A stretch of 60,072 bases of DNA, counting the filler, from Hausera hauseri (Eukaryota): NCBI GenBank assembly GCA_046269625.1. It is 10 parts of 10 records of this genome, joined end to end, with 100 filler letters (N's around TTAATTAATTAA, not from the genome) between each part and the next. Parts side by side here need not be neighbours in the genome. Positions count along the whole stretch, not along the records: positions 1 to 8,424 come from JBJURY010647663.1; 9 more parts are not named here. One strand, 5' to 3'. Numbering within the stretch: the stretch's first letter is position 1; every line of letters starts with the position of its first letter. Shown here piece by piece: positions 1 to 52,116 of this stretch. The notes beneath the pieces were generated by a model that saw only the letters and a program-made list of their open reading frames with translations, was not told the DNA's origin and ran no database searches. A program made the position numbers and the translations under genes.

Positions 1-901
1 TGTACTTTTCGATTTCTTTCTGTACTTCATGAGAATCCATACCGTTCTCTATCTGTTCCCAGGTGAGCATATGTCTGATGCTATTCAGATTATGTATATT
101 TCTGCGTGGAGCAATGATGCTCTTGAAGAGTATTTCACCTTTCTTGTCCGCTATCATTATTTCTACAGGTAAAGGGACTTGCATTCCATTGGATTTGTTA
201 CCGTAGGCAAAGGAGACGGCTAAGTATCTCGTGCTCTGAGCTTTACTGGTATACATAATGTTCGGTTCCCCTATCAGTTCCTCATCTGTTGGTTCTATTT
301 TGTACTTCAATGGGAGTAGATTCGGAAATTGTTTTTCTCGTCTAATAATTTCTATCATGCCCATATTTATCAACTCTTTGGCAATTATTCTTGTGTTCTT
401 AGAATCTATTGGGAAATTGATTTGACAAGATTCTTGTCCGTTTATGGTCTCCAAATTGTTCCTACGTCCTTTCAATCCCCTGAATACTAACATAATTTTC
501 CCAATTGCTAAATGTACGGTAATTCCGATATTGTCACCTGTCCAAACTGGAAATCTGAATGTGGTTTCGGAATTGAATATTTTGAAAGGAAGGATTGCCC
601 TGTTCCTTTGTTCGCCATATTTTAAATTATTGGGTATCTTGGTGACGTCGTTAATTCTATCCACTGGACGATCTAAATGTGCCAATATTTTATCATAGAA
701 AGAATAGCTCATGTTGTTTTCTGCTGTACTGAGTCTGAGTGTTGATCTTTTCTCATTTAATCGTTGAATTAGAATATTTCCGGGTATCTTAAATTCTTTG
801 TTTTCGTTACACTTAATTGGTTGATAGTTTGTGATTGTGCCGTGGTTTCCGAGTTCCGGCGCTTGATTAGATGAATTACCTAACAGATTTATTTTCGCCA
901 T
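1..901 (-). CDS. Open frame of at least 300 codons running off the window edge; last ~75 aa resemble the N-terminal half of a DEDDh (REX4/ISG20/DnaQ-like) exonuclease
   Basis: Manual translation from ATG at 901: MAKINLLGNSSNQAPEL...RYLAVSFAYGNKSNGMQVPLPVEIMIADKKGEILFKSIIAPRRNIHNLNSIRHMLTWEQIENGMDSHEVQKEIEKY, no stop before base 1. Absent from the ORF track because it has no stop in the window. Confidence 0.65.
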   Translation of the reverse strand, partial: MAKINLLGNSSNQAPELGNHGTITNYQPIKCNENKEFKIPGNILIQRLNEKRSTLRLSTAENNMSYSFYDKILAHLDRPVDRINDVTKIPNNLKYGEQRNRAILPFKIFNSETTFRFPVWTGDNIGITVHLAIGKIMLVFRGLKGRRNNLETINGQESCQINFPIDSKNTRIIAKELINMGMIEIIRREKQFPNLLPLKYKIEPTDEELIGEPNIMYTSKAQSTRYLAVSFAYGNKSNGMQVPLPVEIMIADKKGEILFKSIIAPRRNIHNLNSIRHMLTWEQIENGMDSHEVQKEIEKY

Positions 902-1112
902 TCTGCAATTGTACCAATGTTTTATAGTTCCCCAGGTTGGATGTGATTGGCCAATAAATGAATCTTCTTAACAAGTTAAATATCCCTTTCTGATTGGTTC
1001 TTAATTTGTAAAAAGTATAATACATCATGATTGGTCCGATAAGAGGAAGGATTGTGACTACTGAAGTTATGTCTAATTGTATTGGATGACGTAGGACCAA
1101 ATTTCTGAAGAT

Positions 1113-2936
1113 TCACAATGTTAGTATTGGCGCGAAGCAAAACACACTTTGCGTATTCTCATTTGGATCGGTTACAATGGGCTTATTGGTTGTCATATTA
1201 CTTATTTCGCTTATCTCCGTTCTATCATTTAAGGTAAAATGTGGCTCTGGTTTGATATATGTTTTATTATCTCGGATTACCGAATAATGAGATCTGTATA
1301 GCTTCCTCTTCTTACATTTGACTTTCTGTCCGAATGCGACTATTAAAATAACGATGATACCTAATGCTAACAAGATGAGAAATATCCACCAATATTGTGT
1401 AAGATACATTTCCGTAGTTATTGGCACGGATGTAGTTCTCTGCCAATTCCCATCTTCTTCATTGTAACGTATGTTTCTGTATCTATCTGCTGCAGGTAGT
1501 GTCTTTATGTCCAGAAGTTTAGAATTGTCATGAATTTTTATGTTCACTAAATAATTCGTGTCTGGGGTCAATTTTTCACAAAAATTCCGTTTGTTTGTAT
1601 TGTAATTGAAACTAATCTTCTCATGAGTACCTGTACATGTTATCAGGATACTCTGGTTATTTGGATTTTGTGCAAGTAGAATTTCAATCCGATTTACGTA
1701 TGGTGTTAACCTGACCTTTATTGGAAACTCTTTCATGAGTTTTCCATGAAACATGTGTTTGTTTATCGACTTCTGCATTACTATTTGCCCATTTCCTTGT
1801 AATTCTAATGTGAGTTTCCTTTTTGGCTTGTTTTGATTCTCTGCTCTTGATTTGCGTGGACTCCTTGTTGTTGAATTGTGTTGGCTCTCCGATTTTCCCC
1901 TATCCTTAAAAATGGAGGTCCGGGTAGGTGATGAATGTATAGCTATCCGAAGTGTAGTAAATGTGTTTGTAAGTGGAGGCGAGATCAGTCTCAATTGTGC
2001 CTGTGTGAGGGAGATAAAGATTGGTAGTTGTGATGAATGTATGCGTGTAGAAGGTTGTGTACCACGTCCAAAATACATATCGAAACGAATAATGTATCGA
2101 ATATCGGTGTGAAGAGTACAGCATACTTGCGGATGGGCTCCATTCAGATGGCATAGATGCGGTTGAGGCACAACGTGAGGGAAGGAGTCAAACCATATCT
2201 GAATTTCATATCCGAGGGGCAAAAGTTGTAAGGTTCGAAAGTTGATGCAGGAATGAGTCCGATGCACACCGATCATCACAAGATTATTCTTTAAGAATTG
2301 AGTAGTAAACCCATCGTGTAATGACGTAGGGGGGTTACCTAGAAAGTCCATGATATAATGCACTGGAACATGAATACTGAAATGAGGGTTCCATTTTGAA
2401 ATGTATTGCTCGTGACTAGACTTTTTAAGCAATATATAGTAAGAATATGACGTATCATATTCGAGTTGACTGCATGTCTGATTCTTTTTTTCAAAGATTG
2501 AACATGTGGTTGTTTCTATATCTGCTGAGGTAAAAACAATTGTAACTTCGTGTTGCAGGGGAACTGGTGAGTGTGTTTGGAGGCAAATGCTAGGTTCATC
2601 GACGTCGACGTGAGTAATGGTCGTGAGTTGAACCAAGTCGACATAGTCGTCCGAGGTTATTACCAGTTTCACAGAAAACGCTATAAGAAGTAATAAAACT
2701 ATACCAACGTATCTACCTGGAGTGAGGTGAACATGATAAGTAGCGGATTTGTGTGTATCCCGTTTTTGTTGCAGGGATAAAACAGCGACTTTGTTATCTA
2801 TAATTGTTGGAGACTCCAATTCTGTTTGTCTTATAAAGTCAGTGTATGAAGAGGGTGCTCTCATAACTCGTTGTACGGATACAGCTTCGTACTTGTCTGC
2901 ACCCTTTTGAATAAAGAGTCTGGGGACGAACATCAA
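1113..2936 (-). CDS. Integrase C-terminal tail continuing into a type I membrane protein (internal signal, Cys-containing ectodomain, FN3-like domain, TM, basic tail)
   Basis: 607-aa ORF. Hydrophobic GIVLLLLIAFSVKLVI (~2658-2708); FN3-like LTPDTNYLVNIK...IKTLP (~1495-1572); TM WWIFLILLALGIIVILIVAF (~1330-1392) followed by QKVKCKKRK. Confidence 0.7.
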   Translation of the reverse strand: MMFVPRLFIQKGADKYEAVSVQRVMRAPSSYTDFIRQTELESPTIIDNKVAVLSLQQKRDTHKSATYHVHLTPGRYVGIVLLLLIAFSVKLVITSDDYVDLVQLTTITHVDVDEPSICLQTHSPVPLQHEVTIVFTSADIETTTCSIFEKKNQTCSQLEYDTSYSYYILLKKSSHEQYISKWNPHFSIHVPVHYIMDFLGNPPTSLHDGFTTQFLKNNLVMIGVHRTHSCINFRTLQLLPLGYEIQIWFDSFPHVVPQPHLCHLNGAHPQVCCTLHTDIRYIIRFDMYFGRGTQPSTRIHSSQLPIFISLTQAQLRLISPPLTNTFTTLRIAIHSSPTRTSIFKDRGKSESQHNSTTRSPRKSRAENQNKPKRKLTLELQGNGQIVMQKSINKHMFHGKLMKEFPIKVRLTPYVNRIEILLAQNPNNQSILITCTGTHEKISFNYNTNKRNFCEKLTPDTNYLVNIKIHDNSKLLDIKTLPAADRYRNIRYNEEDGNWQRTTSVPITTEMYLTQYWWIFLILLALGIIVILIVAFGQKVKCKKRKLYRSHYSVIRDNKTYIKPEPHFTLNDRTEISEISNMTTNKPIVTDPNENTQSVFCFAPILTL

Positions 2937-5900
2937 CTACTTCATATGGTCCTTGACCAGTTCGTGTTAACTTTAGTGATTTGCTTTTCTTTGCGACTAG
3001 ATAATGAACCATTACATAATCGCCAACTTTGTAAATATGTGGGCGTGCTTTCTTGTTAAAATGTTTCTTATACCCAGCTTTGTACTTTTCTTCAAATTCT
3101 TTAGCCTCATGTTGAAAATATTCTAACCGTTTCAGTAGGTCTTGGTACTGTTCGTCCATGTGATCACTAATTTTTAAAGATGACGGTAGTAATTCGATGT
3201 CTAGTGGCAACAATGGCAAGCGCCCAAACATCAGTTCAAAGGGTGAATGGTTAGTGCTCTTCGTAGACGTAGTATTGACAGCAAAAGCAGTAGTTTTAAG
3301 GTGGAGATGCCAGTCCTTTTGATCGTGTGCAACCTTTGTTAAAAGTATGCCTTGGATTGTTCTCTTCATTCGTTCAATCATACCGTTACATTGCGGGTGG
3401 TAAGCAGCAGTAAGTAAATGTTTGCATTGAAATATTTTGGATAATTTTTCAAAAAATTCGCTAATAAAATAGGGCGCGCGATCAGTTAATAATTGTTTTG
3501 GTGTGCCTAGTACGGCTACTACCTCATAAAAATGCTTCGGCAACAGTGCTGCTAGTCATATTCTTTAATGGCACCAAGACGACATATCGCGAATAATAGT
3601 CCACAATTGACAGAATATATTTATATCCGGAATCAGACGCTTGAAAGGGACCGGATATGTCCATTGAACAAACTTCCATTGGTCTACGTGCTTCTGGTAG
3701 AGTCCCTAAGAAAGGTTTAGATCGAAATCCTCTATCTTTTCTTGTGGCACACATCTTACATAAGCGTACTCATCCTTCAATGTGTTTGTTCATCTGTGGC
3801 CAATAGTATTTCGCCGTTATTCGTTTTAATGTCTTATTCAGAGAAGGGTGGCCAGCTAAGTGAGAATCATGTTCTTGTAGCATGACAGCTTTGATTGCTA
3901 CTGACGGTACTATTACTAGTTTCCGCTCGCCAACTTTTAGTTGTAGAATTCCATTTTCTATTTTTAACTGTTCTTTGTGTTTATCATAGAATTTCTTAAT
4001 ATGACTTGATACTTGATCGGCCGACTGTTCATTGATCAGTTGTTTAATCTGTGCAATAAGTGTATCCTGTTTTTGTAGTGTTTCGATATTTCGAACCTGA
4101 ATCAATCGTTGCTCCTGCAACATCTCATTGATAACTGTCTCTTAGTTGTTTATCTTTTTCATTATCAGGTTTGTGAGTTGCTGCGATTATTCTTTCGTAG
4201 GGTAAACGGGAAATTGCATATGCGTCTATATTTTCCTTTCCTGGACGATATCGATATTCAATGTCATAATTCAAAAGCTCTAACTTCCATCTTTGGAGTC
4301 GGCTTGATACATGTCGATTATCAGATCGAAATGATAGTAAGGCCTTATGATCAGTGAATATGATGATTTTGTGTCCATAAATGTAATATTCGTAGTGTCG
4401 CAGTCCGTCTTTGATAGCTAACAACTCCAGTTCTGTTGTAGAGTATTTTCTTTCAGCACTATTTAAACTACGTCCGCCATATGCTATGACGTGTTCCGTC
4501 TTTTCTTCTGGACTTTGTTGGGTTAATATATAACTAATGGCATTAATACTGGCATCTGTTTTAAGAATGAAAGGTAAGTTAAAATCTGGGTATCTCAATA
4601 TCGGTGCTGATACTAATCTTTTCTTAATTTCGTCAAAAGCATTCTGATTTTCTTCACTCCATTCCCATTTTTGGTCCTTCTTTAACAATTTGTATTGTGG
4701 TTGATTGATTTCTGCAAAATTTTCGATGAAAGTGGAGTAAAATCCTCCTAAACCTAACCAAACTTTCATTTCATGTACATTGGTTGGTAAGGGATATTCT
4801 AATATTTTAGATATCAAGTCTCGACTAGTGGATATTCCTTTGTTTGAAACTATGAATCCAAGATATCGGACTTCGGTTTTACACCATTCACATTTCTTTG
4901 GATTCAGCTTTAATTTTGCAAGTCTGATTCGATCAAATACTTCTCTTAACTCTACTAGATGTGCTGACCATGTTGTTGAAGCGATTAAAATGTCATCAAT
5001 ATACGATAGGCCCCAAACTCCTTTAAGTACTAAGCGAATAAATTCTTGAAAGAATGCCGGCGCAGTCTTTAATCCGAATGGCATGCGGGTAAATTGATAC
5101 ACTCCGGTATGTGTCTTGAATGCGGTTTTCCATCGGTCCTCTTCTGCTACTGGAATTTGCCAGAATCCACTTTGCAAATCGAGAGTTGTAAAATAATTAC
5201 AATCTTTCAATTCATCTATGATATCGCGTATTCTAGGTATCGGGTAAGCATGATTCGCTAAATGCTTGTTTAACGTAACACAATTTACACATAACCGACG
5301 TTTCGTGGTATTAGCTTTCTTTGCCATAACTATAGGGGATGGCCAAGGTGACTGACTAGATTCAATGATGCCTTTGTCCAACATGGTTTGGATTTGTTCC
5401 TCAACTTCCTTTTGGAGTGCCTTTGGAGGCGGATACCATTTGGGTACTGGTTGTCGTAAAAGATCTGTTTCTTTCCCTGTCAGAGGATCAATCATAAATG
5501 ACAGCTTAAACTCAACCAAATCAGTCCGTCCAATATCTGTTTCATCTTTAGCAAATATATCAATATATTCAAAGATGAGGTCCGAGAGATTTTTTGGTAT
5601 TCATCTGATAAATTTTTCTTCGCTTTTGCGAGAATAAGATCAAGCATATCTTCAACAATTTCATTTGTAGACAGAGCTGCAAGTTTACCGTCATATTCTT
5701 TATGTAGAATAGTTTCGAGAGCATGTCCAAGCTTCGTTTTAGTAAATATCGTGACATATCTCGGAGTTGGATTCAATATTTCAATAGGGATTGTTCCGCC
5801 GATTACATTTACACAATAATGCGGTAGTATAAGTCTGTTCAGGAACGTTCTTGGTATAAATTCAATGACACTGTTGTCGGGAAACATTGTTCTGGCGTGT

Positions 5901-6976
5901 ACTACCATTCTAGAATATGGTGGTATCTTCTCGACATGTCCTATCCAAATGTCTTTATTTTCATAACTTGGCGGAAAATCCTCGTTATTAGGGCAAATTG
6001 ATCCTGATTGTAAATTTATGTGAACTCCTTCCAATCTTCTCAATACGTTCATGCCTATAATGCATCTGGGATCTAAATTTGTCATGACCTCGAAAATTAC
6101 TTTAACCTTTTGTCCGCAGATGATTGGTTCACTTTTCCAATGTCCGTATGGTTTGCTGCATTGCTGGAAAGCTGAGATTGTACCTAGAGTGTCTTTTGCT
6201 GCTAATTTTATCTGTGACTGAAGTTCGTCCGGGATTGCGTGTTTTGCTATCAGTGATATATTGGCGCCTGTATCTACCATGGCGTTTAGATCAAAGGTGC
6301 CAAAGTGAACGGTTGTATGTGGTCGATTATCTCTAATTAACTCTAAAAATGTCAATACATCATTATGATCGTCGATATGAGGTTCCATCAAGGTGTAGCT
6401 GGATGCACAATAATGTCTTGTTCCGTTAGGTAATATGACTGTTAAGCTTTCCAAAGATAGTGTATCCTTTTCTATTTCCTTTGTCTTTGATTTAAGTTCA
6501 GCCAAATCTGGATAGCAACTTAGGTGTCTAACGGTCTGTTGAGTACTATCTGATTCTGTTGTTGCCATTATTCGGTTAGACTGACTTTCTACAGATTTAT
6601 TTGTTCGGTGATAAGTCACTGGCGGCATCATATCAAGCTTAGGAGATAGTGGCAAGTTTATTCGGTTTCGTTCTATGTTTTGTGTAACAATAGACTGAAG
6701 TATTTCGTCTTGAGAAATTTTTGGTAGGTTACGCAATTTTATATATTCTTCTCTTTTTGTATATTGGTCTTCCAACTTCGGTAGATTGAAATTTGACATT
6801 TCATAAGGTGCACCTGGTACTTGGTGTTTATTCTTTGGTTTTTGTTTAATCTTTTCCTTTGATTTCATTAGTTTAAATAATTTCTTTTTCTTTTCTTGTA
6901 TATTGGATGTATTAGTTCTGTACCATGGTTTCCTAAATATGTTTTTGGTTTGCGATTCACTTACATATGAGCCCAT
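2839..6976 (-). pseudogene. pol: Gypsy pol (linker-PR-RT-RNaseH-IN) split by a few frameshifts and a stop
   Basis: VDTGANIS; LDLQSGFWQIPV, MPFGLKTAPAFFQ, YIDDILI; TDAS, YSTTELELLA, TDHKAL; integrase HHCC (HDSHLAGH...CKMC), MDISGP, TDRAPYF, YHPQCNGMIER, GPY. Confidence 0.95.
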
Positions 6977-7607
6977 ATTGGTGCTGTTTATATAGTTTTT
7001 TGAAAATGTTCAAATCTGGACATCAATAATTAAGACCTGCAGTGGGAAATTTGTATTGAATGAGATTCTGCATAACAGAATTTACAAGGTTTGACCAGAG
7101 TGAGTGCGAATGAATCCATCCTTCTCATCTTAAGATTATTTTTGTTTAAATGTCTGCCATAAAAGGTGGTGGGTGATTACTTCAAGGAATTATAGGTTTT
7201 CATCTGTAGTATGTTTCAATCCCTTTTACATACAGCACTTTTATATACAGCACTTTTATGTTCTAACTAGTGACCTCATTTTTAACACTAGACCTTTGTC
7301 TCTAGCTCTTAAAGGGAACTGAAACCAGTTTACAGGAGCTGCCCTGTTACGCTTTTGGAACCAAAAACTCAAAACTGGTAATGTGAGCAGATAAGTCCCA
7401 CCTACTTTTCGGCATGCAACCCAAACAGGAAATAACTAATTATTGTTGAACATGTTTAAAAAAAACATCTGAACATACAGCAGCAATTAGAGGAAACTCT
7501 GGTTCATTTTCCGAACTTAATAATCTCAATATTGCCCATAAAAAATGCCCTCATTAACAATGATGATTTCAAGACGGCAGTTTTTATACATGAGAAAATT
7601 GAAACTA

Positions 7608-8424
7608 CACTGTTAAAAATTCCCGTAAAATTATGGTCACTGACCATATAATTTGACGGGAAACGACCTCCATAGCAAAAAATGGTCTACGACCGTAAAA
7701 ACCCTTAGATCCCTATGAGCTTGAATGTATACTTCGCTGCCAGCTTTGAATTACGGTCGCTGGTACTAAAATAGCCACATTCGCTTAAGTCACGTGGTGT
7801 CATCTGTGAGCGAGGATCCGAGATCAGTCGCCTCGCCGCCATTAAAACAGCATTGTTGGACGTTTTTTGAGGTAAGTTTCTTTATTTATTATTCGTTAGT
7901 AAGTTTTGTTATTAGTATACTTTGAGTATAGAATTGAGGATGTTATTTCTCAGTCTGTACTGAAATATACGTCATAGAATATATATACGGTTTATATATA
8001 TTTATTTTTTTCTCTTTAGAAAAAAAAGTGTTTACACCACCTAAAAGTTAAGCATGAGCATGAGAGTGTTTGCAGGTGTGTGATGCACATCGGGGTTCTT
8101 TCATGTAGTAAATACACTGGTATTAAGTGAATCAGATTTAAACACAATGTGTGTCCAGGTGATGAGCGATTCAGGCTTACGGTTCTTCCCGGGTGCAGTT
8201 CACAAAGTGCCATCGGGATCACACAGAAGAGAGTTTTGTCTCCACTTTGACTCTAATACATTGTAATTTGATATTTTGGCACAATAACCTGCATTCTTTT
8301 TTCAGATGTCTTTTGAGAACTAACTGGGCCTTTGTAACTGTGTACACATGGATGCAGCCAGATACACACACATGCTCATGAATCACACAGCTTGATTGTA
8401 TATTGGATGAGGACGGCTTTCATT
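7608..8424 (+). mobile_element. Possible CACTA/CMC-like DNA transposon end followed by spliced exon fragments
   Basis: TA|CACTGTTAAAAA start, internal palindrome TTCCCGTAAAATTATGGTCA-C-TGACCATATAATTTGACGGGAA (~7620-7662), splice-like GAG|GTAAGT (~7872) and polypyrimidine-AG (~8019, ~8305). Only one end seen. Confidence 0.3.
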
Positions 8425-8524
8425 NNNNNNNNNNNNNNNNNNNNNNNNNNNNNNNNNNNNNNNNNNNNTTAATTAATTAANNNNNNNNNNNNNNNNNNNN
8501 NNNNNNNNNNNNNNNNNNNNNNNN
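8425..8524. other. Artificial scaffold linker
   Basis: N44-TTAATTAATTAA-N44 (stops in all six frames). Confidence 0.98.
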
Positions 8525-8810
8525 TTTTTGATAAACTGATTGTTGGTTTAAAGGAAATTGTTGTAACAGAATCTGTTTTTTTCCTAACGAACTTGCTTCA
8601 TTTGCAAAATCAATAAAAATTTTTCTATATTTTCTTAAAACATTTCCTTGCTTCCAATATTAACACGACCTTTTAAAATAATTTTCAAAACTTCAAAAAA
8701 TCCTGCATAACAAATTCCGGCATGGAATGCAACAATTCTCATCTAAATCTGTTTGGCGAATTGATTGTTGCTTTGAAGTATGGTAAACTTCTCTCTAATC
8801 GTGTCATCAT
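8525..8810 (-). pseudogene. Small Maverick/Polinton accessory ORF remnant
   Basis: MMTRLERSLPYFKATINSPNRFR*ELLHSMPEFVMQDFFEVLKIILKGRVNIG resembles a small helical ORF I associate with animal Mavericks; lies downstream of the ATPase on the same strand. Confidence 0.4.
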
Positions 8811-9210
8811 ACAACTTTCACTTCCACCAATTTTGTTTCTTTACAGTCTAAACCATCGTTTAGGTAACCTAAACTTTTTTCGTGTATGATCTTTTTAACA
8901 ACTTTTCGTCTCTGTTTTTGTCTCTGTTTTCGTCCCAGTTTGATTATTACTGTTTTGAATTTCATTATTTAGATTTTCATGTCTCATAACTTTGATTATC
9001 AACCTTAGGAAAGTGATTAGCAGCTTGCTCCATTAGATAATTAAGCCCACTGCTTATGTTTTCTACAGCTTTTGTGAATTTGTGAGGCTTGCGTAGAAGG
9101 AAGTACAAAGGTAATGAAAGAAACACGCCTTTTAATTCTTTCGACATTTTTCGACGTCTAGTTTGATTTTTTCATTTGGCCTTTCTAGCCATTTGTTTTA
9201 TCTATTTTTG

Positions 9211-9432
9211 TTATATTTGTTTATACACTGTTATTCCTTTCTGATTAAATATATCTGTTTTAACCCGTTCATCATCTGGACATTGTTGTGTGAAGTCGAT
9301 AAAAATATACCCATGTGCATTTTTCGTTTAATCATGAAATGCATCAAGAAAATATTTCTATCATGTGGATAAGCTTGTCGAGCAACAAAATCAATTACAG
9401 TTTGATCACGAGGATTTTTAAATAAAAGTCCT
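9211..9432 (-). pseudogene. Maverick/Polinton packaging ATPase, C-terminal fragment
   Basis: LFKNPRDQTVIDFVARQAYPHD/KYFLDAFHD*TKNAHGYIFIDFTQQCPDDERVKTDIF follows the FKNPRD..ARQ.YP..GYL.ID..RTNIF pattern; one frameshift and one stop. Confidence 0.8.
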
Positions 9433-10094
9433 GAATGAACTGTACAAGTTAACACAATTACTCGTAAAAATGGCGGAGATTAGCAATGAGAAGGTGAGAC
9501 AATTGATGCCTCAAATACGACAGGCTGAAGAAACGTGCATTAGAAATAAACAAAGAGCAGTAAAGTTAGACGAACTAATAAATGAGCTCGAAATTTATAG
9601 GAACAAGTATGCTTTTACTGAGTCAGAAATTAACAGGAAGATAGTTTATACAAAGATGGCAAAGGAATGTAATTATCGAGGTAACCGACTATCATCAAAA
9701 GGAACTCATTCCTGCTAACGAAGTAGGCAAACTATTAAAACTGATCCAGTACGCTTCTGGAAACGGAATAGATTTCCGGACCACACAGATGAAAGAAATA
9801 CAACCGAGATTAAAGGACATTCGAGAGAATGTGCAAAGAATGAATACAGCACTAGCAGACAATGGACTTCCAGAAGTTGGAATGGGATGCTTACTTAGAT
9901 GTCATGTCGAAAATCCGATGACTCCAGTACGGTTAAATGAAACAGAAATGTATCCGCCGAACAGAAAATTATACGTGGAGACGCTCCTGAATTCGACTCT
10001 AAATTATCTTGTGAGAACGCAGTTTACAGCGCGGTGCCGAAACTTTTGATAAGGAAACATGCTAAAATCTTAAGGGCTAAAACCTGAGGTAACG

Positions 10095-10305
10095 ATGAAA
10101 ATAAAGATATCATCTGAGTGGATGGATGAAAGACAATGTGAGTTAACCACATTCCTGTGTGAGGGATGTAAGAGAATGGTTGATAAATAATGGTAGAATA
10201 AATGAACTATAGACTCTACTTTAGAGGTAGAATATTAGACGACTTAGAACCGTTAATAGACGTTGGAATTATACTTGATGAAACAAACCGAATAGTAGTA
10301 ACAGT
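10095..10305 (+). pseudogene. Ubiquitin-like domain within the retroelement coding region
   Basis: MKIKISSEW...YRLYFRGRILDDLEPLIDVGI...IVVTV aligns with ubiquitin [20 protein letters not shown]; no C-terminal GG. Confidence 0.6.
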
Positions 10306-10965
10306 AGCTAATGAGCAGACTAAAGAAGCCACACGTAAGACTAAGACAGCACAATGCGTAGGACAAATTATGGGAGTCCGAGACGCCGCCATGTATTTTG
10401 AGTATCTGCAAACGGATGAAGACAGGGAACAGTATGACAAGAATTTAGTACCAATAAGTGAAATGACAACGACGGTTTCAAAACAGAAATGCCCTGTAGG
10501 TAGGCTCAGGAAAATATGAGATGTTTACTATAACGGAGAATTGATTAAAGAATTGAGACAGATGTCAATTTCTATCTTCAGCGCAGACAACGAAGAATTA
10601 AGCGAGTTAATGAAAAATCTAATACGCATCGTAAATTATTCAAGCCTCCATGGTGACGTATTAGACGAAAAAGAAAAAGCGATATTTAACGCAGCAAAAA
10701 CGATGAAGATCATGGTGAAGAATGCAATAGAAGAGCTAAGGAAAGTATTAGTGTACTTAGCTATTAAGAGAAATCCCAGTAAAGAGAATGAATTTAATAG
10801 AGCTACAAGCTTGATAAGAAAAACAGCTAGAAAACTGCCTCGAGAAATAAACTGGCTACGACTATTCGATAAAAAAGAAGATAAACGATCCAGCAATAGT
10901 AACCGACTCGAAGACGTGTTACAAAATCTCACAACAACGGAAAATAACAACCATAGAAAGGAGTC

Positions 10966-12625
10966 CAATTGGCTAATCAACTTACTCACCTTGATGATAT
11001 TGGTAAAACAGATAGGTGCCCTTACCATCTATGACTGCAATAAATTTAAACTTGGACAGAAATACTGCTTAATGGATTTAGAGGCGTGCGAAGATGCCAG
11101 ATCGCATAAACTAGAGAAAGGAGAAAAGTTATTTTCTATACCAACAACAAGAATTGATATCATTGGATGGAATGAAATGTATGTTACGGCGATCATGTAG
11201 CATTTTCCACTCTGGGTTAATACACGGACATTCGCCGATAATTAAACCGACGACTCACCTAATTCCAATGAACTTAGAACGACAACATTGTAAAGAGGCA
11301 AGGGAAACAGGAAGATTAAAGTGGGATGGTATGGAACTGGAAATTCAACCTGGAAAGATAATTAGAGCATATAAAGTAGTGGCTGGGAGGCTAGATATGT
11401 ATAACGGACAGTGTAATGAAAATCAAAAATGCCATTTACAAGACGGAACATGTGCTTTTAGAAGTTCTGTTATAATAAGGGAACCCCCTTCAGGAAGAAA
11501 TTGTAATTTTATCAAAATCAAGGAATTAAAATTTAATGAAACTACCGGAAACTGATATGTGGATAAATCTGATAGCAACTCAAGAACAGGCGAGGACGTG
11601 GCAGAACATCCTACACTTACTATTTTGACCGCCGATCCGCATGGACTAAAATTTTTTAAAAGGGAGATGATCCCACTTTGCGAAATTGTGATGTTCGCCA
11701 TTAATTATGAAGCAGAAACGGAAATAAGTGCAAATACTTACAACCTTGAGACGCAAGGTATTCGTATTGAAGATTACCTAAAAAATCAAGACGATTTTTA
11801 CTACAGAGTGCAAATCGGAATTACCGAATTAAATCACAAAATGATAAAGAATAATTGTAAATTGGATATGGAAATCATGAGGACAAAATTAGCTCTTATC
11901 TACGCTAACCATGATTTAGCATCGCCAATAATTCTGATGAGAGAAGGAATTTTCGGTCGAGTTACCGGTGAAGTCTTATTGACTTATGAATGTGAGAAAC
12001 GAGACGTACCAATCAATGTCGAAGAAAAACGGTGCGTACAAGAACTCCCCCTTATTTATCAGAACACTCAATGCTTAGCCATGCCGCTTACTAGAGTATT
12101 ATTAGATAATGCTACCGAACCAACGATCCTTAAGGAATGTAAGGCAAGTTTAGTAGAACTCATGTAGCGAAACGGATTGGGTAAGCTTGCCAAATGAAGG
12201 TATTAATGTCGCTCGAAATTCAGTTAACAGGAACTAACCTAGTAAAAGGGATAACGGACGACAAATTCCAAGCACCTCATCAAAAGGTATTATAGACCAA
12301 AGGAAATTGATGCGTTCAGACAATTTCGTGCCTTTCCGCGACAACGAACGCATACATTAAACCGAGCCATAGCCTAAGTAGTACATGATACTCGATATCA
12401 AGCTAAATTACCATTACCAACGACTAACCACGGAAATACTCTATAAAATATTAGGAAGATTTGTAATTTTTGGACAAGCTGCATCTGGATTTTTAACCAT
12501 TTACTTTTTAGTCCAATTAATTAAAGCGGTAATCCAAGCTATTATAAACTGATATGAAATATTCACATTGACAGGATTCTCCTGCAAAATTTTTACCGCA
12601 ATCATCACACCCTTCGGAAAGATGC
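10966..12625 (+). pseudogene. env: Chuvirus-like envelope glycoprotein (presumed class III fusogen), frameshifted
   Basis: Signal NWLINLLTLMILVKQIGA then LTIYDC...LMDLEAC (11021); VAGRLDMYNGQC; GEVLLTYEC..CVQELPL..PLTRVL; Y.PKEIDAFRQFRAFP..TLN; C-terminal FGQAASGFLTIYFLVQLIKAVIQAIIN*YEIFTLTGFS. All match, in order, the chuviral G motifs as I recall them. Confidence 0.85.
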
Positions 12626-13289
12626 TTAAGGCATACGAAGAAAATCGATGGATAAATGTTGTAGAACGCCATGTCGGATATTATAATCGTAAACGACGAG
12701 GCAGACCCTCGATTCTCAATAAACGCAAAAATAAAAAGTCAATAATGCGGAAAGACGAATCAGATGATGACGAGCCTAAGGGAGGAGAAGTGAATTCCAG
12801 AATGAAGACGCACAAGATGTACTCAGTGATTAACTCACCGTTACCTATCATGCCGCCAGCAGCACCAATATATGAGGAGTGCAACCACGAATAGATCGTA
12901 TCATGTGGGTCCGAAATTTATCAAAGTCCCATAAACTATGAAGACCGTTACGAAAAGACAAAACAATATGTAGTACTACGGAAAATGAATGTTATCAACC
13001 AAGGGCAAACCTAAAACAACCACGAAATATTGTACTCAAAAAGAATACAGCGTAACATAGAATCGAAATAAACGATCTGGGAAAACCCAAAATTGTGTTT
13101 ACGAACTCACGAAACGCATATCGACAGTCGCGCCAATGAGATGGTGAATAATAATTTATACCCCAGTGGAGAATTAAGCCAATTGAGGCAAGATACTATT
13201 TCATCTCCAGAGATAACAATAAATGGACACAGAGTCTCTACTATAAAACGGTCAAAGGCAGTGTCAAATTGTTTTGGAACAGTAGTAGA

Positions 13290-13505
13290 AAAGAGGCCCT
13301 TCGCTAAAATACACATCGAAGATTAGGAAATGTATGCACTAATCGACACAAGATCAGAAAAATCATTCGTAAAATATGAATCCATACCAACCACTTTACG
13401 AGACCAACTATGTCCACCGCATCATCAGACCCAGGTAGCGTAGGAGCATTTGGGCAAGTATCGAAGCCGACATTTAACTGGACTGCTACCGTCCATATGA
13501 TGGGC
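13290..13505 (+). pseudogene. Retropepsin (aspartic protease) fragment
   Basis: KRPFAKIHIED*EMYALIDTRSEKSFV (DTR at 13345-13353, one base from DTG) ...GSVGAFGQVSKPTFNW. Confidence 0.85.
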
Positions 13506-26958: not shown

Positions 26959-28743
26959 AAATCATTCATTAAGGAGAATTATAAAGTTAGGGATTATTTC
27001 CATTTCACGTGCACATATCGAGGTGCAGCATACAACATGTATAAAATATTTACATATGTGCCTATAGTGTTCCATAATCTCAGTGGTTATGATTCCCATT
27101 TCATTGTTTGAAACTGAGCAGCATTGAATGAAACACTGATATGATCCGTAATAGTGAGGAAAAATACATCACATTTACCAAGCATGTTGGAAAAATCAGG
27201 CTTTGTTTCATAGACAGTTTCCGTTTTATGTCGTCTTCACTTGAAAGTTTAGTGAAGAACCTCCCAGCAAAAGAACTCAAGGAGACTAAGCGGTTCTTTC
27301 TCATTGCATTTGATCTATTCAAAAGGAAAGGCGTGTTTCCTTATGACTATATAACATCATGGGAAACACTGGATGAGGCCTCATTGCCGGCCAAGAAGGA
27401 TTTTTACAACATCCTCTCTGATTGCAATATCAGTGATATGGATGACCAGCATGCTCAAAATGTCTGGCATGCATTTCAATGACGAATATTAGCAGAATAC
27501 AGCGACATATACCTAAAGACGGACTTGCTGCTTCTGACGGATGTCTTTAAGAGTTTCAAGGATGCTACGATAAAGAGCCATGCATTGGATCCGGCTCATT
27601 TCTTTACGGCTTCATAGATGAGTTTGGCAGCTGTGCTGAGATATACAGGTGTCAGGCTACAGATCATAAAGGATTACTACATGATCCTCATAATTGAGAG
27701 AGGCATTATAGGCGGAATATGCCAGGCCATCCACCGGTATAGTGAGGCAAACAACAAGGAATCCTCATATTTATCATACCTGGATGCCAACAACTTGTAT
27801 GGATAAGAAATGAGCGCCCCATTGCATATGATAACTTCAAGTTGGTTGAGCATCCCGAAGGCATCCTTATACTGGACCTGGATTCCAATGGAGATACAAG
27901 CTATATACTGGAAGTAGATATGGAATATCCGGCTTCTATTTACAAAAGGAATGAGCATCTGCCTTTCCTTCCTGAGAACAAAAGACCTCCGAATGGGGGA
28001 TTAGAAAAGTTACTGTGCCATCTTCGAAATCGGGAAAGACATGTAGTCCACTACATAAATCTCCAGCAAGCGGTCAGAAATGGACTCCGTGTTATTAAGA
28101 TCCATTGGACCCTGCAGTTCAGCCAGTTCATGTGGCTGCAGCCATACATAGATCTCAATACCAAGCTACGGACCAATGCCAAGAACGACTTTGCGAAGGA
28201 TCAGTTCAAGCTATACATCAACAGCGTTTTTGGCAAGACCATAGAAAATATCCGCAACAGGGTTAACATCGAACTGGTCTCTGAGTGGAAGCGGGCATAG
28301 AAGCTCATTGCCAAACCAAATTTCCACAGTAGCATCATATGTGCGGAGAACTTGGTCAGCATCCATATGCTGAAAACATCCTTGCAATTCAACAAGCCCA
28401 TATATGTGGGTATAGCAAAAATGGACCTGTCAAAGACCCTGATGTACAAATTCCACTATGACATCATGGTCCCTAAGTTTGAGTCCATGCAGCTGATGGA
28501 TATGGATACTGATAGTTTCATCTATCAGATCTATACAGATGATATTTTAAGGACTTTGTCCAATTGGCACATCACATGAATATCTCGGATTATCCGAAGG
28601 AACATTCCAACTATTCAATAGCCAACAAAAAGGTCCTTGGGAAATTCAAAGACGAGGTGAATGGAGCAATCATCTCGAGATTTGCAGCTCTTAGGTCCAA
28701 AATGTATGCCATTGATATATTTGGCCAAGTAACGAAGAGGGCT
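26959..28743 (+). pseudogene. polB: Maverick/Polinton protein-primed DNA polymerase B (exonuclease and polymerase domains), disrupted and 3'-truncated
   Basis: VRDYFHFTCTYRGAA, FHNLSGYDSHF, FIDSFRFMSSSL, KGVFPYDY, YLDANNLYG, KLYINSVFGKT, MDTDSFIY, LGKFKDE, LRSKMYA. Confidence 0.95.
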
Positions 28744-28744
28744 G

Positions 28745-29460
28745 TGTCACCGCGTCGGATTTATAGTTGTACCCGATCCCCCGCCGCGAAAATGTCACAA
28801 GATGACCTTCTCACACATGAACGGAAGAAAGTTTTGTTATTCCCAAATCTGTATCAATCGATTTAGTCAGCTCATCCCTGCAAAATTCTCAACCTTTTGT
28901 TATCCGTTATCAGAAACCTGATTCATTCATCAGGCCTACCGATGAAAATTTTATTTTGAAAAACATCGGCGAATTTCAAGACAACGAAAGATTTGTTTGT
29001 ATCATTTGAAAATTGGAAATCAGGTACTACATACAGCTTCACGGTTTTTGCTCCAAACATTCTTGGAAATTCATCTAAACCAAAGGAGTCATATGAATCA
29101 ACATTGCGACCAGATTTTAAAGATTTCAAATTAAATTCCATCGAAAATGGATTCAATCACAAAGTTAATGTTTCATGGACTTTCGAGGTTCGCCGGAACT
29201 GTTCGCATTACTTCACCGTAAGTTACAAAATCTCTGGTAAAAACTCTCGTACAAATACAACAAACAATACAAATTTGTTATTAAATGAATTGAACACGAA
29301 CGAGGTTTACAACGTCACAGTCAGACCAGAATTAAGAATAAAAACAGAGAACAATGAAAAGTTTGGTCGACCACAATTTCAAATATTTTATACAGGAAAG
29401 CAACTCATTAGAATCACAAATGTCAGATTAAATAATTCTCTCAGTAATCAAATAGAGACA
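28745..29460 (+). pseudogene. Fibronectin type III repeats (host surface-protein fragment)
   Basis: VPDPP.., NWKSGTTYSFTVFAPNILGNS, VNVSW...FTVSYK...LNELNTNEVYNVTVRP. Confidence 0.7.
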
Positions 29461-29779
29461 ATTTCATGGATTTCCTTGAAGAAGATATTTTGGCAATTTT
29501 CAATTATTTGGAAGTTTGTTTCGTCAAAAGCAAAACTTATAAATTCAATTTTTATATCATCATTAAATTAATTCTGTTTTATACAATTTTTTATTTAATT
29601 TTATACTCAAAAGATCGTCATGAAGTACGAAAACGAAAGACGCTTGGAAAATGATAATTATTATTCTGATGACGAAAGAGGCGGATACGGAAATATGTCG
29701 TCAGAACAAAAAGAAGCAGGATTGCATCTTATTCGTGCGGTACGCTATTGAAATTGAATATTATAAAAGCAGCCCATTT

Positions 29780-30120
29780 ATACCCGACGAAATGGGAATG
29801 ACTACATTGCATCATGCTGCAGAAAATGGAAATTTTCTTGTCGTACAACATTTACTGCATTCATTTTCTGACATTGACGTTGATCACCAATCAGCCGCCG
29901 GTCGCACAGCACTACCAATTGCCTGCTGTAACGGATATCTTGATTTGGATTCGTTGGGTTATCATTCTTTGTTGTGGGCCATCGAGAAACGTCATTTGTC
30001 AGTCGCTCTATTTCATCAATGAGACTGATGTTGATGTAACAATGAAAAATAATTTTGAGGAAGATGCCTGCTAACTTGCTCTAGAATTGGATGATCCCCA
30101 GTTGTTTGATATTTTAAACG
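29780..30120 (+). pseudogene. Ankyrin-repeat fragment, frameshifted
   Basis: DEMGMTTLHHAAENGNFLVVQHLL..DVDHQSAAGRTALPIACCNGYLD..GYHSLLWAIEKRHLSVALF. Confidence 0.85.
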
Positions 30121-46900: not shown

Positions 46901-49900
46901 CATTCGTTCTTTCGTTCTTTCGTTCGTTCTTTCAATCCTTCCTTCCTTCTTTCATTCGTTCGTTCTTTCATTCGTTCATTAGTTCCTTTGCTCGTTCGTT
47001 CGTTCTTTCTTTCGATCGCTCGATGGATCGTTCTTTTATTCGTTCCTTCGTCCGTTCATTCTTTCTTCCTTTCGCTCGATCGATTGTTCTTTCTTTCGTT
47101 CCTTCGTTCCTTCTTTCTTTCCTCCCTTCGTGAGTTCGTTCTTTCTTCCGTTCGTTCATTCGTGACTTCGTTTCTTCGTTCTTTCGTTCGTTCTTTTGTT
47201 CGTTTTTTTGTTCGTTCTTTCGTTTCTTCGTGAGTTCGTTCCTTCGTGAGTTCGTTCATTCGTGAGTTCCTCTTTCTTTCATTCTTTCCTTCTTTCCTTC
47301 TTTCGTTCGTTCATTTGTTCATTCTTTCGTTCTTTCCTTCGTTCTTTCGTTCTTTCGTTTCTTCGTTCCTTCGTTCCTTCCTTCGTTCTTTCATTCCTTC
47401 ATTAGTTCGTTTGTTCTTTCGTTCCTTCCTTCGTTCTTTTGTTCATTCGTTCGTTCGTTCATTCGATCGTTCCTTCGTTCGTTCCTTTGTTTGTTCCTGC
47501 ATTCGTTCGTTCGTTCTCTCATTCGTTCGTTCGTTCGATCTCTTATTCATTCGTTTGTTTGTTCGTTCGTTCGTTCTCTCGTTCGTTCCTTCGTTCTTTC
47601 TTTCGTTCGCTCGATCGATTGTTTTTTCTTTCGTTCCCTTGTTCTTTCTTTCTTTCGTTCGTTCATAGTTTCATTCGTTCTTTCGTTCCTTCGTTCGTTG
47701 GTTCATCCGTTCGTTTGTTCGTTCTTTCGTTCGTTCGTTTCTTCGTTCGTGCGTTCGTTCGTTCGTTCGTTCTTCCGTTCGTTCTCTCGATCGTTCGTTC
47801 TTTCGTTTTTTTGTTCGTTGGTTCATCCGTTCGTTCGTTCGTTCTTTCGTTCGTTCGTTTCTTCGTTCGTTCGTTCGTTCTTTCTTTCGTTCTTTCGTTC
47901 TATCATACGTTCGTTCGTTCGTCCGTTTTTTCATTCTTTCCTTCGTTATTTCTTTCTTTCCTTCGATCGTTCGTTCTTTCCCTCGTTCCCTCGTTCGTTC
48001 CTTCGCTCGTTCGTTCGTTGTGTCATTCGCTTTTTCGTTCTTTCGTTCGTTCCTTCGTTCGTCCGTTCGTTCTTTCGTTCGTTCCTTCATTCCTTTGTTC
48101 GTTTGTGAGTTCGTACTTTCTTTTATTCCTTCCTTCTTTCATTCCTTCGTACGTTCTTTCTTTCGTTCATTCGTTCCTTCTTTCGTTCTTTCGTTCTTTC
48201 ATTCGTTCGCTCGTTCGATCATTCGTTCACTCGTTCTTTCGTTCATTCGTGAGTTCCTTCTTTCGTTCATTCGTTCCTTCTTTCGTTCTTTCGTTCTTTC
48301 ATTCGTTCGCTCGTTCGATCATTCGTTCATTCGTTCGTTCGTTCGTTCATTCTTTCGATCGTTCCTTCGTTATTTGGTTCTTTCTTTCTTTCCTTCCTTC
48401 GGTCTTTCTTTCGTTCTTTCATTCCTTCATTCGTTCGTTTGTTCGCTCGTTCCTTCCTCCGTTCTTTTGTTCATTCGTTCGTTCGTCCTTTCGAACGTTC
48501 CTTCGTTCGTTCCTTTGATCCTTCCTTCATTCGTTCGTTCGTTCGTTCTTTCCTTCGTTCGTTTGTTCGTCCGTTTGTTCTTTCTTTCGTACGTTCGTGC
48601 GCTACTTCCTTCCTTCGTTCGTTCGTTCGTCTATTTTTCCTTCTTTCCTTTGTTCATTCGTTCTTTCGTTCGTTCGTTCGTTTGTTCGTTCGTTCGTTCG
48701 TTCGTTCCTTCTTTCGTTGGTTCATCCGTTCGTTCGTTCGTTCTTTCGTTCGTTCGTTTCTTCGTTCGTTCGTTCGTTCGTTCGTTCGTTCCTTCTTTCG
48801 TTGGTTCATCCGTTCGTTCGTTCCTTCTTTCGTTTGTTCGTTCGGTCGTTCGTTCCTTCGTTCGTTCGTTCGTTCGTACGTTCCTTCGTTCCTTCGCTCA
48901 TTCTTTCGATCGTTCGTTTGCTCCTTCCTTCCTTCGTTCTTTCGATCGTCCTTTATTTCGTTCTTTCTTTTGTTCATTCGTTCTTTCATTCGTTCGGTCT
49001 GTCGTTCGTGAGTTCGTTTCTTCGTTCGTTCGTGCGTTCTTTCGTTCATTCGTGACTTCGTTCCTTCCTTCATTCTTTCTTTAGATTACTCGTTCTTTCG
49101 TTCCTTCGTCCATTCGTTCGTTCGTTCGTTCGTTCGTTCCTTCTTTCATTCCTTCATTCGTTCATTTGTTCGTTCGTTCGTTCGTTCGTTCTTTTGTTCG
49201 TTCGTTCGTCCGTTCTTTCGTTCTTTCCTTTGTTCATTCGTTCTTTCGTTCATTCTTGAGTTCGTTCTTTCGTTAATTTGTTCCTTCTTTCCTTCTTTCG
49301 TTCGTTCCTTCGATCGTTCGTTCGTTCCTTCAATCGTTCCTTCGTTCGTTTGTTCGTTCGTTCCTTTTTTCCTTCGTACTTTCGTGCGCTCCTTCCTTCC
49401 TTCGTTCGTTCGTTCGTCCTTTATTTCGTTCTTTCCTTTGTTCATTCCTTCTTTCGTTCATTCGGTCGTTCGTTCGTGAGTTCGTGAGTTCGTGTGTTCG
49501 ATCCTACGTTTGTTCCTTCGTTCATTCTTTTGTTCGTTCTTTTCTTTGTTCTTTATTTCGTTCGTTCAATCGTTCGTTCTTTCGTTCCTTCGTTCCTTTC
49601 TTCATGAGTTCGTTCGCTCGTCCTTCATTCGTTCGATCTTTCGTTCCTTCGTTCCTTCGTTCGGTCGTCCGTTCTTTCGTTCTTTCCTTTGTTCATTTGT
49701 TCTTTCGTTCCTTCGTTTGTTCCTTCGTTCCTTCCATCGTCTGTTCGTTCCTTCAATCGTTCTTTCGTTTTTTCGTTCGTTCGTTCTTTCCTTCGTTCCC
49801 TCGTTCGTTCCTTCGCTCGTTCGTTCGTTGTGTCATTCGCTTTTTCGTTCTTTCGTTCGTTCTTTCCCTCGTTCCCTCGTTCGTTCCTTCGTTCGTCCGT

Positions 49901-50192
49901 TCGTTCTTTCGTTCGTTTTTTCGTTCCTTCCTTCCTTCGTTCTTTCGCTGTTTCGTTCGTTCTTTCGTTTGTTCGTTCTTTCATTCTTTCGTTCGTTCCT
50001 TTATTCCTTCGTTCGTTTGTGAGTTCGTACTTTCTTTCATTCGTTCCTTCTTTCATTCCTTCGTTCTTTCATTCGTTTGCTCGTTCGATTATTCGTTCAC
50101 TCGTTCTTTCGTTCCTTCGTGAGTTCCTTCTTTCGTTCATTCGTTCCTTCTTTCGTTCTTTCGTTCTTTCATTCGTTCGCTCGTTCGATCAT
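43963..50192. repeat. Degenerate tetranucleotide tract: (CGTC)n then (TTCG/TTCT/TTCC)n, with an internal N gap at 44222-44409
   Basis: Directly visible; strongly pyrimidine-rich on the plus strand. Confidence 0.98.
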
Positions 50193-50292: not shown

Positions 50293-50960
50293 TCTAACTA
50301 AAAGTTTAATGCCTACTGTAAACCACAATAGGTCAAGTAGCTATTCTACAAAGAAGATTCCAACAACCTGGAGAAACTGTCACTCATTATTCTTACGCTT
50401 TATCAAAACTAGTAAAAGATTACGTCAACACTGTTAAGACCCAAATCTTAATTAAAAATCCTAATGCAAAAGAAGATGAATTAAAGATTGAGACAGATAT
50501 TCACCTATTAATTCAATTTTTGAAGGGTGTCAGAAAAGACATCAAAACAGATATTCTAAAGAGAATCTGGCTAACATTCAATGAAGCAGTGCGAGAAGCA
50601 CAGAATCTTGGAGATTATGTAGGCCCTATAAGAATGAACCATCTTTCAAATATAATAAAAGATTTGGTAATCAAAACAATAACTCAAATAACCAACAACA
50701 AAGTCAACAAAACCAATCTAAACTTCAAAATGTTAATAATCATCAGCAACATAGATCCCAGCAAAATCAGAACGCATATGACAATTCAAATAATAGCTCA
50801 TATTCAATAGAAAATAATTCTGGTAAAAAATATAACAAAAACAATAACAATTCATCTAACCAATATCAACAAAAAAGTCGAATTGATGTCAATAGAAACG
50901 GTGCACACATAGTTTGCAGAAGATGCGAACAGACTGGTCATAATTCCATAAACTGCATTG
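50293..50960 (+). pseudogene. gag: Retrotransposon gag remnant
   Basis: QFLKGVRKDIK...TFNEAVREAQ, an N/Q-rich stretch, and knuckle CRRCEQTGHNSINC (~50915-50956). Confidence 0.7.
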
Positions 50961-51097
50961 TGGTGCCCACGTTCATCCAATGGGCGATTTGATAAAAAAC
51001 TATTTTGTTTGAATATTTAAATAAAAAATAAACTTTTGTGTTTGCCGTACGAAACTATTGTTTTATAATTGCATGATTTTTAATCAACTATTTCCAA

Positions 51098-52115
51098 ATG
51101 TCTACAGGTTTGATTTCAATATTTGAAACAGATCTAAACGAGATTATTTTGGAATATTTTGAATATTGTGGGTACAGCAGTGCACTTCAAAATTTCATCA
51201 AAGAACTGGAAGACAAAGGCAAACCGACACCGAAGGAGTCGTCCGATAAGAAATTTAATTCGGTATCACGTGATGTCACTGGCAGAATTTTAAATGCATT
51301 TCATCGCGGAAACAAATTGGAATTTTTCAAATTATGGAATTCTCATTTACCAGAGACATTGCATCAGGATGATCCCGTCTGTCAGAAATTAGAAGTCTAT
51401 TGCCCAATCTATTTTGCAATTTTTTCGATTGTACATAATTTTGATAATGAAGGCGAATTGTTGTCAATGCAAGGATTCCGCGAATTTCTGGAAACTAGAG
51501 GTGCAAAATTAAGCAAAAGTACAGAATTCGTACGATTTTATGCGTTACCCTATGTGCCGAATCCTCGAGAACATCCGTCGTTTTGTGAATTATTTCAAAA
51601 CAGATGGATTTCCGGTTTAGGAATGCGAGTAAAACGATTTTTCAAATTAGCTCTATCAAATAACAGGGAACCAAAACTTATAAAATTATATCAGAAAAGT
51701 GGTTCAGACAACGATGAAATCAGTTTAAAACAGTTAGATTAAAATGGTTGACTCCGAAAGACTGACCACTAGTTACATGAAACGACTGAATCAAGTTCAA
51801 ATCGACTAACATAACTTAATAGGCATTAGTGCTGAGCTTGTTGATTTATTAGAAAAAAGTCTTCAGGGTATTCCGGTCAGTCCTAGTCATTTGCAACATG
51901 TCTGTCAAAAATTATTGGTTTCACAACAGCATCGACTTAAAACGAATGGAATTCCGGTAAATATAAGTTACGATTTATCGAGACCAGGAACAACGTCCAT
52001 GATGCTTCGACAATCCATTCAAGTGAATAACCTTCCTATGGCTAATGGACGAGAATCTACTGATATGAGTAATAAAGCGTTTAAGCCACTAAACTTTACG
52101 AAAGTGAAACATAAG
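51098..52115 (+). pseudogene. ARMC9: ARMC9 (LisH-domain ciliary protein) intronless pseudogene, N-terminal ~340 codons
   Basis: LisH LNEIILEYFEYCGYSSALQNF; QKLEVY..IYFAI; FLETRGAKLSKSTEFVRFYALPYVPNPREHPSF; D*HNLIGISAELVDLLE; RPGTTSMMLRQS, all collinear with ARMC9. Frameshift near 51740 and TAA near 51807. Confidence 0.88.
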
Positions 52116-52116
52116 T

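Follow-up and report, generated by a model that had tools for sequence, protein, structure and literature searches.

Two broken, probably Burro-like Ty3/gypsy elements in Hausera hauseri and a conserved FN3-like membrane protein encoded after integrase in their lineage

Two scaffolds of the Hausera hauseri assembly GCA_046269625.1 carry damaged retroelements, one with a pol and further ORFs beyond integrase and the other with a viral-type glycoprotein ahead of a protease. Together they raise the question whether both descend from one virus-like lineage and, if so, what the complete gene order of that lineage is. The window (the whole stretch of DNA analysed, 60,072 nucleotides with filler) consists of scaffolds joined by N-linker-N spacers, in which scaffold 1 occupies positions 1-8424 (JBJURY010647663.1) and scaffold 2 positions 8525-13505. 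The original prediction tied the two into a single family through a shared linker and protease. Our analysis indicates that they are probably broken copies of two divergent families within one giant Burro-like lineage of Ty3/gypsy (Metaviridae-type) elements, a reading that includes the mechanism of expression proposed below. The features are listed here, with G for the glycoprotein, TM for a transmembrane segment, and PR, RT, RH and IN for protease, reverse transcriptase, RNase H and integrase.

Scaffold 1:
6326..7009, minus strand: linker before the protease, putatively homologous to the post-TM region of scaffold 2 (1/2000 shuffles)
6026..6331, minus strand: aspartic protease with DTG motif (Pfam RVP E 8.3e-8; reciprocal best match to that of scaffold 2)
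5492..6025, minus strand: protease-RT interval common to G-bearing relatives (blastp to P0002, P0010 and P0015, aa 226-428, E ~1e-13)
4125..5600, minus strand: reverse transcriptase and RNase H of Ty3/gypsy type (RVT_1 E 4.7e-31; RT_RNaseH_2 E 1.2e-33)
2839..4141, minus strand: integrase (Integrase_H2C2 E 1.6e-12; rve E 6.1e-7; tblastn to P0002 and P0004)
1113..2936, minus strand: post-integrase membrane protein of 607 aa (hydropathy; relatives' repeat profile)
2..967, minus strand: 3' ORF of 322 aa, with an N-terminal domain as in contig L001 and the start of a DEDD exonuclease; the scaffold end cuts the ORF
7026..8424, no strand: flank unrelated to the element (depth drop in run X1; no G or G-tail profile match)

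Scaffold 2:
10022..10318, plus strand: ubiquitin-like domain (UBL) with stops (relatives' UBL profile iE 9e-4; 18.4 bits, 0/500 shuffles)
10520..10897, plus strand: helical domain at the Bcl-2-like position of some relatives (borderline)
10937..12392, plus strand: signal and Monjiviricetes/gB-type fusion glycoprotein ectodomain (PF24664 E 1e-13; family G profile iE 3e-47)
12466..12522, plus strand: glycoprotein TM with an FGQAASG motif common to relatives (hydropathy; G profile)
12553..13293, plus strand: cytoplasmic tail and linker (sequence; linker alignment)
13294..13505, plus strand: protease in broken form, incomplete at the scaffold end (tblastn; alignment with the scaffold 1 protease)

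The pol of scaffold 1 has gypsy-type Pfam domains in the order PR-RT-RH-IN and falls among gypsy pols in the tree. Four frame changes and one in-frame stop lie between its protease and the 607-aa ORF; the frame shifts within the protease-RT interval, and the integrase is split by a stop and frame changes into three open pieces (3770-4141, 3524-3769 and 2839-3555). The glycoprotein ectodomain of scaffold 2, with its hydropathy-defined signal segment at 10973-11029, is likewise interrupted by stops and frame changes. Both copies are dead. Neither Gag nor a CCHC knuckle was found in either scaffold, both being truncated, and no paired LTRs were found in scaffolds 1 and 2 or in the related contig L001, all of which stop short of both ends. 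Among the three runs, X1 gave a summed contig depth of 223-8464 over positions 1-7025 and of 2-22 over 7026-8424, with a drop from 491 to 2-22 at the boundary near 7025; this measure gives no copy number. The depth pattern indicates that positions 1-7025, including both 3' ORFs, are repeated DNA and that the copy ends at about 7025. Just beyond this end, window 7054-7177 is occupied by a short interspersed repeat, at which runs X2 and X3 show many loose ends.

All five motif pairs by which the scaffolds had been linked were present in the claimed order on direct sequence check, in scaffold 1 within a minus-strand ORF (5492-7009) and in scaffold 2 on the plus strand across stops and frame changes (12856-13505). 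A tblastn search of scaffold 2 with the scaffold 1 ORF gave E 7.7e-7, or 2.7e-5 with composition correction. In tests with 2000 shuffles, in which stops and breaks were read as X, no shuffle reached the score of the protease-only alignment (87; z 17) or that of linker and protease together (117). The linkers alone gave a modest match (score 62; z 4.7), reached by one of 2000 shuffles and by none of 1830 background windows drawn from the rest of the window. The PGAPYE/PAAPIYE pair is not independently significant, because it lies outside the best local alignment. Since the linkers score 62-66 by chance against the much longer 141 stored proteins, the linker match alone is weak and the protease carries most of the link: the two proteases are mutual best matches, scoring 87 vs best scores of 62 and 72 among the 141 other proteins. 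The modest match suggests that the scaffold 1 linker is homologous to the region behind the glycoprotein TM of scaffold 2. No significant DNA similarity between the scaffolds was found by blastn, and they therefore represent two families rather than two copies of one. The original motif correspondence is thus confirmed, and a common lineage is likely from the protease and linker homology.

It is highly improbable that the scaffolds are unrelated Gypsy elements joined by a chance linker match and generic retropepsin similarity. A linker-only p of ~0.0005-0.001, the similar linker scores against long unrelated proteins and the lack of DNA similarity would fit such a reading. It is largely refuted, however, by the margin of 15-25 score units that separates the match between the two proteases from the best match of either among 141 proteins, by a similarity that does not stop at the DTG motif but continues far past it, and by the independent agreement of both scaffolds with the same relatives through different modules.

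These relatives also reveal the gene order of the proposed Burro-like lineage. A phmmer search with the scaffold 1 linker-protease ORF against 1.84 billion representatives returned seven matches, each of them to the protease part, with the linker matched in no case. The top match, P0001, was disregarded as a plant repeat of caulimovirus type. The second, P0002, is a single ORF of 2855 aa with G at 133-813, followed by PR-RT-RH-IN and two later hydrophobic segments. With the P0002 G as query, a search covering proteins of 1570-4997 aa, a range that favours fused forms, found 12 proteins of 1582-4057 aa; RT was present in eight, always behind G, and the other four consisted of G and then protease. 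Eight database proteins of 2855-4057 aa place G before PR-RT-RH-IN, and seven of these have a membrane segment after integrase. A gB/Monjiviricetes-type glycoprotein with signal and TM thus precedes the protease both in scaffold 2 and in the relatives. A word-indexed search of longer proteins with the window linker and protease confirmed none of 7372 candidates.

CCHC knuckles occur in the N-terminal part of all ten relatives examined, and P0014 matches Ty3_capsid (E 3.5e-4). Therefore, the Gag of the relatives is ordinary and lies upstream of the UBL, so that the linker neither occupies the Gag position, as had been supposed for scaffold 1, nor serves as a Gag substitute. The UBL of scaffold 2 lies upstream of env as in Burro-like elements, and P0016 has a Pfam ubiquitin match (E 4.4e-5). 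A Bcl-2-like domain before G in relatives is weak (Pfam Bcl-2 E 0.022; PDB Bcl-2 E 0.04-0.1), and the helical domain of scaffold 2 is a borderline match to it (24/1000 shuffles vs L002; 16/500 vs the profile). Ankyrin repeats are found in P0014 and P0016 and a C2H2 finger in P0013. Several protease-like motifs lie downstream of the G TM in relatives; P0002, P0010-P0020 and L001 each contain several such domains per polyprotein, in some cases with one after integrase. ORF limits differ, with P0002, P0010 and P0013 starting shortly before G, and Gag and the remaining proteins are therefore not necessarily produced in equal numbers. In L002, a lone TGA (3058-3060) lies in the same frame between the Gag-UBL-Bcl-2-like ORF and the G ORF, just before the G signal; it could be a readthrough site or a mutation. 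P0011 (Gag-G-proteases, 2296 aa) and P0004 (PR-RT-RH-IN-FN3-like-TM, 1782 aa) have a longest listed contig of equal length (21743 bases), and a single element may encode both.

A metagenome contig scan confirmed two of 466 pattern matches; among viral contigs, none of seven pattern matches was confirmed with RT and none of 53 with a G alignment. Contig L001 encodes a 3425-aa ORF composed of a UBL-like start, G, proteases, RT, RH, IN, a signal-like segment, FN3-like repeats and a TM, and a 495-aa RNase_T ORF starts 338 bases after this polyprotein ORF. The order that had been reconstructed as a composite, from UBL to exonuclease ORF, is thus present in one natural contig, which joins G to the post-integrase ORFs. 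No sequence within the window makes this junction. L001 also has an extra 145-aa ORF (12229-12663) after the exonuclease ORF, without a significant Pfam family. These comparisons establish how the domains are ordered in the relatives and that each ORF of the window elements is homologous to them. Intact relatives encode Gag, UBL, the gB-type glycoprotein, PR, RT, RNase H, IN and the FN3-like protein in one polyprotein.

For the family of scaffold 1 itself, the predicted full layout holds as far as the order seen in relatives; an upstream G does not appear in this copy, which ends at about 7025. The G and G-tail profiles detected no glycoprotein or TM remnant in the 1.4 kb of 7026-8424. However, the scaffold 1 ORF remains open as far as 7009, and the repeated DNA then breaks off abruptly, without anything resembling the end of an LTR. 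The distance from TM to protease is about 290 codons in scaffold 2, and scaffold 1 retains about 240 before its DTG motif; the TM of its G would therefore sit just past the cut. We propose that the scaffold 1 copy was cut within the tail of G, and infer that a G lay upstream in its own family.

Phylogenetic placement of the scaffold 1 pol bears on this point. The RT coverage filter was passed by 129 proteins, and trees were built on 106 rows after removal of long-branch or repeated-domain rows and of rows without integrase blocks; IQ-TREE and the AU test used 53 of the 106. In the RT-only FastTree, scaffold 1 and P0118, a pol fragment without post-integrase TM, were sister to the G clade (support 0.936), whereas the integrase-only and concatenated trees placed scaffold 1 with a clade without G in the same ORF (0.909 and 0.978, respectively). 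In the IQ-TREE result, the G clade has 100/99 support, and scaffold 1 branches from a basal polytomy with P0118 as its sole partner. Forcing scaffold 1 into the G clade was not rejected by the AU test (p-AU 0.33), nor was the grouping demonstrated. A 130-row RT tree that grouped scaffold 1 with P0118, P0007 and P0009 was discarded as probable long-branch attraction. The scaffold 1 RT scored 380-384 bits against G-bearing relatives vs 377-379 against ordinary pols. It is therefore the accessory modules rather than the pol tree that tie scaffold 1 to the G-bearing relatives, and at best scaffold 1 is a deep branch of their lineage.

Scaffold 1 might instead represent a related G-free family, in which Gag-G was lost or G was never present, the FN3-like protein is the sole env-like gene, and the protease is common by descent or recombination. 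The absence of G upstream, the unstable pol placement with two of three FastTrees putting scaffold 1 away from the G clade, and the lack of G in the same protein for 119 of the 120 RT matches listed at 861-2455 aa (the exception being P0121, with G before PR) are in line with such a family, but this length range leaves out most full gag-env-pol polyproteins. Moreover, besides the open ORF and abrupt boundary described above, the linker matches the region right behind the TM of G in scaffold 2, and eight of the nine proteins matching the FN3-like profile carry G, the ninth (P0004) starting at the protease and falling inside the G clade. We therefore consider a G-free family rather unlikely and retain the reading of scaffold 1 as a truncated member of a G-bearing lineage.

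The 607-aa ORF behind integrase has a signal-like hydrophobic segment (2676-2732), a TM (1329-1385) and then a tail, as judged by hydropathy. Its ectodomain has Cys pairs and three sequons, with three Cys-bearing FN3-like repeats at about 2436-2564, 2076-2156 and 1533-1694. An FN3-like profile built from 10 repeats of seven relatives matched all three (E 4.4e-13; 0/500 shuffles) and matched nine of the 141 stored proteins, seven of which had built the profile. Post-integrase TM segments occur in 10 of the 129 RT-bearing proteins, namely eight G-bearing proteins, P0004 and P0079. By profile, relatives have one or two repeats vs three in scaffold 1, and no repeats were detected in P0013 or P0079. 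L001 carries a second signal/FN3-like/TM module between G and the main protease (aa 1585-1770; ~nt 4750-5310), a sign that the module is able to change its place or number inside a polyprotein. The membrane-proximal repeat, modelled from a 13-row alignment (pLDDT 67), gave a Foldseek list dominated by FN3 domains, though with a weak best E of 0.07; in VIA, C2 domains scored Z 7.0, practically level with FN3 domains of cytokine receptors at 6.6-6.8. The model thus suggests that the repeats likely adopt an FN3-like fold.

The 3' ORF of scaffold 1 aligns with the exonuclease ORF of L001 (P0141) over 249 columns (blastp E 3e-7; 0/1000 shuffles), and its N-terminal domain alone also matches (2/1000 shuffles). 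P0141 matches Pfam RNase_T (E 1.4e-5). Pfam assigned no family to the scaffold 1 ORF, and a PDB sequence search with the whole ORF or its last 100 aa gave no match; a single-sequence fold (pLDDT 32) was set aside, and the Atlas provided a lead only (0.83; RNase_T in 14% of members). The first DEDD acidic motif is DAE in L001 and lacks acidic residues in the scaffold 1 copy, in which exonuclease activity is therefore doubtful; its later DEDD motifs fall beyond the scaffold end.

It is conceivable, if somewhat improbable, that neither the FN3-like/TM ORF nor the exonuclease ORF has a role on the particle, both being host genes or captured passengers that act, for example, as a cell-surface decoy in host cells only. 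In the Atlas, the FN3-like protein resembles FN3 and cytokine-receptor proteins of animals (0.85-0.90, as leads only); this resemblance and the variable module, with its changing repeat number, extra L001 copy and non-detection in P0013 and P0079, would be compatible with passengers, as would the missing acidic motif of the exonuclease. Nevertheless, the module is in frame with pol in nine relatives and present in both main subclades of the G clade. A flanking host gene is rejected, because the FN3-like ORF is multi-copy with the element in run X1 and in frame in relatives. We favour the interpretation of the FN3-like protein as a part of the element, most likely an attachment or host-receptor-mimic surface protein, as our best guess.

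Elsewhere in the window lie a mariner transposase, part of a viral-type DNA polymerase B, further gypsy pols and a piece of ARMC9, a content that would suit an animal genome. At window 50322-52403, a Gag-like piece containing an Asn/Gln-rich stretch gives a match (iE 3.5e-6) to the Gag profile of the relatives, and long ARMC9 ORFs (CTLH_Armc9 E 4.7e-41) follow it directly; an element has possibly captured an ARMC9 retrocopy here. An FN3 ORF piece (E 1.8e-4) lies next to an ankyrin one (E 4e-9) on one scaffold at 28960-30022, adjoining the DNA polymerase B piece (27746-28297). A long diverged satellite-like array (35800-42800) and a long simple-repeat tract (43900-50190) both contain many spurious ORFs.

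Several known systems resemble the gene order described here. Burro/GYPSM1 of planarians has one huge ORF with Gag and CCHC, Ubi/SUMO-like, Bcl-2-like and ankyrin domains and then PR-RT-RH-IN, and its env, in frame between gag and pol, matches mononegavirus fusion glycoproteins (PMC6431247). The present lineage, compared by description only, shares Gag/CCHC (in the relatives), the UBL, env before pol and perhaps a Bcl-2-like domain, with ankyrin in P0014 and P0016. The gag-env-pol design with these extras was already published for Burro in PMC6431247. Burro has MATH and BIR domains and an internal region near 25 kb, whereas Pfam scans of the relatives gave no MATH or BIR. The available Burro description names neither a post-integrase FN3-like membrane protein nor an exonuclease ORF (PMC6431247). 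GAG-ENV-POL errantiviruses with HSV/gB-type env are reported from Nematoda, Bryozoa and Platyhelminthes (PMC13524379), the nematode elements by Sacco et al. 2022 as cited therein. They resemble the present elements in the Ty3/gypsy pol and in the upstream gB/chuvirus-like glycoprotein with an ectodomain between signal and TM. According to PMC13524379 they are not monophyletic, and the layout alone therefore assigns no clade. The main text of PMC13524379 has no occurrence of fibronectin, exonuclease, ubiquitin or ankyrin; fibronectin, FN3, exonuclease, ubiquitin and Bcl-2 were also not found in its supplement, a weak result since a control term was unmatched as well.

The bdelloid rotifer LTR retrotransposons Juno and Vesta carry a DEDDy exonuclease ORF3 after pol (PMC5408684) and are thus similar in having an exonuclease ORF downstream of the pol of a gypsy-like element. 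As described in the part of that source available, their ORFs are RNase D-like DEDDy proteins replacing env, whereas the present lineage has RNase_T (in L001), an extra N-terminal domain and two membrane proteins alongside. Mosquito elements with a chuvirus glycoprotein (Dezordi et al. 2020, as mentioned in PMC13524379) share the glycoprotein family, but their pol is of BEL/Pao type vs Ty3/gypsy here. In insects, gypsy fragments are described beside such glycoproteins without evidence of functional capture in the portion consulted (bioRxiv 2022.06.22.497255). The literature searched reports no FN3-like protein behind integrase in elements of this kind, and supplements or Repbase entries outside it may note one.

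Hydropathy and domain order suggest how such a polyprotein might be expressed. Gag and the accessory domains would remain cytosolic. For G, an internal signal would direct entry into the ER lumen, and the TM of G would bring the chain back to the cytosol, where PR-RT-RH-IN would fold. A second internal signal would then export the FN3-like repeats, to be anchored by the last TM. In this arrangement, Pol would at first be attached to the tail of G instead of being fused straight to Gag, so that the enzymes would be recruited via that tail, and the protease or proteases would free the enzymes within the particle. Intact relatives are predicted to bud as enveloped particles. Class III fusion proteins act as fusogens, and G would accordingly fuse membranes. 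A likely role of the UBL, Bcl-2-like and DEDD exonuclease modules would be to counteract host defences such as cell death and RNA silencing.

The layout cannot be regarded as categorically new, because the gag-env-pol core is published for Burro and for gB-type GAG-ENV-POL errantiviruses. The addition made here, relative to the literature searched, consists of a second membrane protein of FN3-like type, conserved behind integrase, and of an exonuclease ORF at the 3' end, both within a gag-env-pol lineage resembling Burro. To our knowledge, enveloped LTR elements have so far been described with one env gene. If our reading is true, a second surface protein after integrase would amount to a two-protein envelope in a metavirid, and would offer a handle on the cell choice of these elements, which is elusive outside Drosophila according to the portion of PMC13524379 consulted. 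Tentatively, these elements may represent a widespread giant invertebrate retrovirus-like lineage that makes its capsid, class III fusogen, enzymes and FN3-repeat surface protein from one membrane-threaded polyprotein. Such a lineage would package Pol via the G tail, split entry between attachment protein and fusogen as in herpesviruses and paramyxoviruses, and carry anti-apoptotic, ubiquitin-like and exonuclease accessory genes. The relatives suggest that the Burro design is a family of many members and not a planarian oddity, and that annotation ending at integrase misses about 3 kb of coding sequence.
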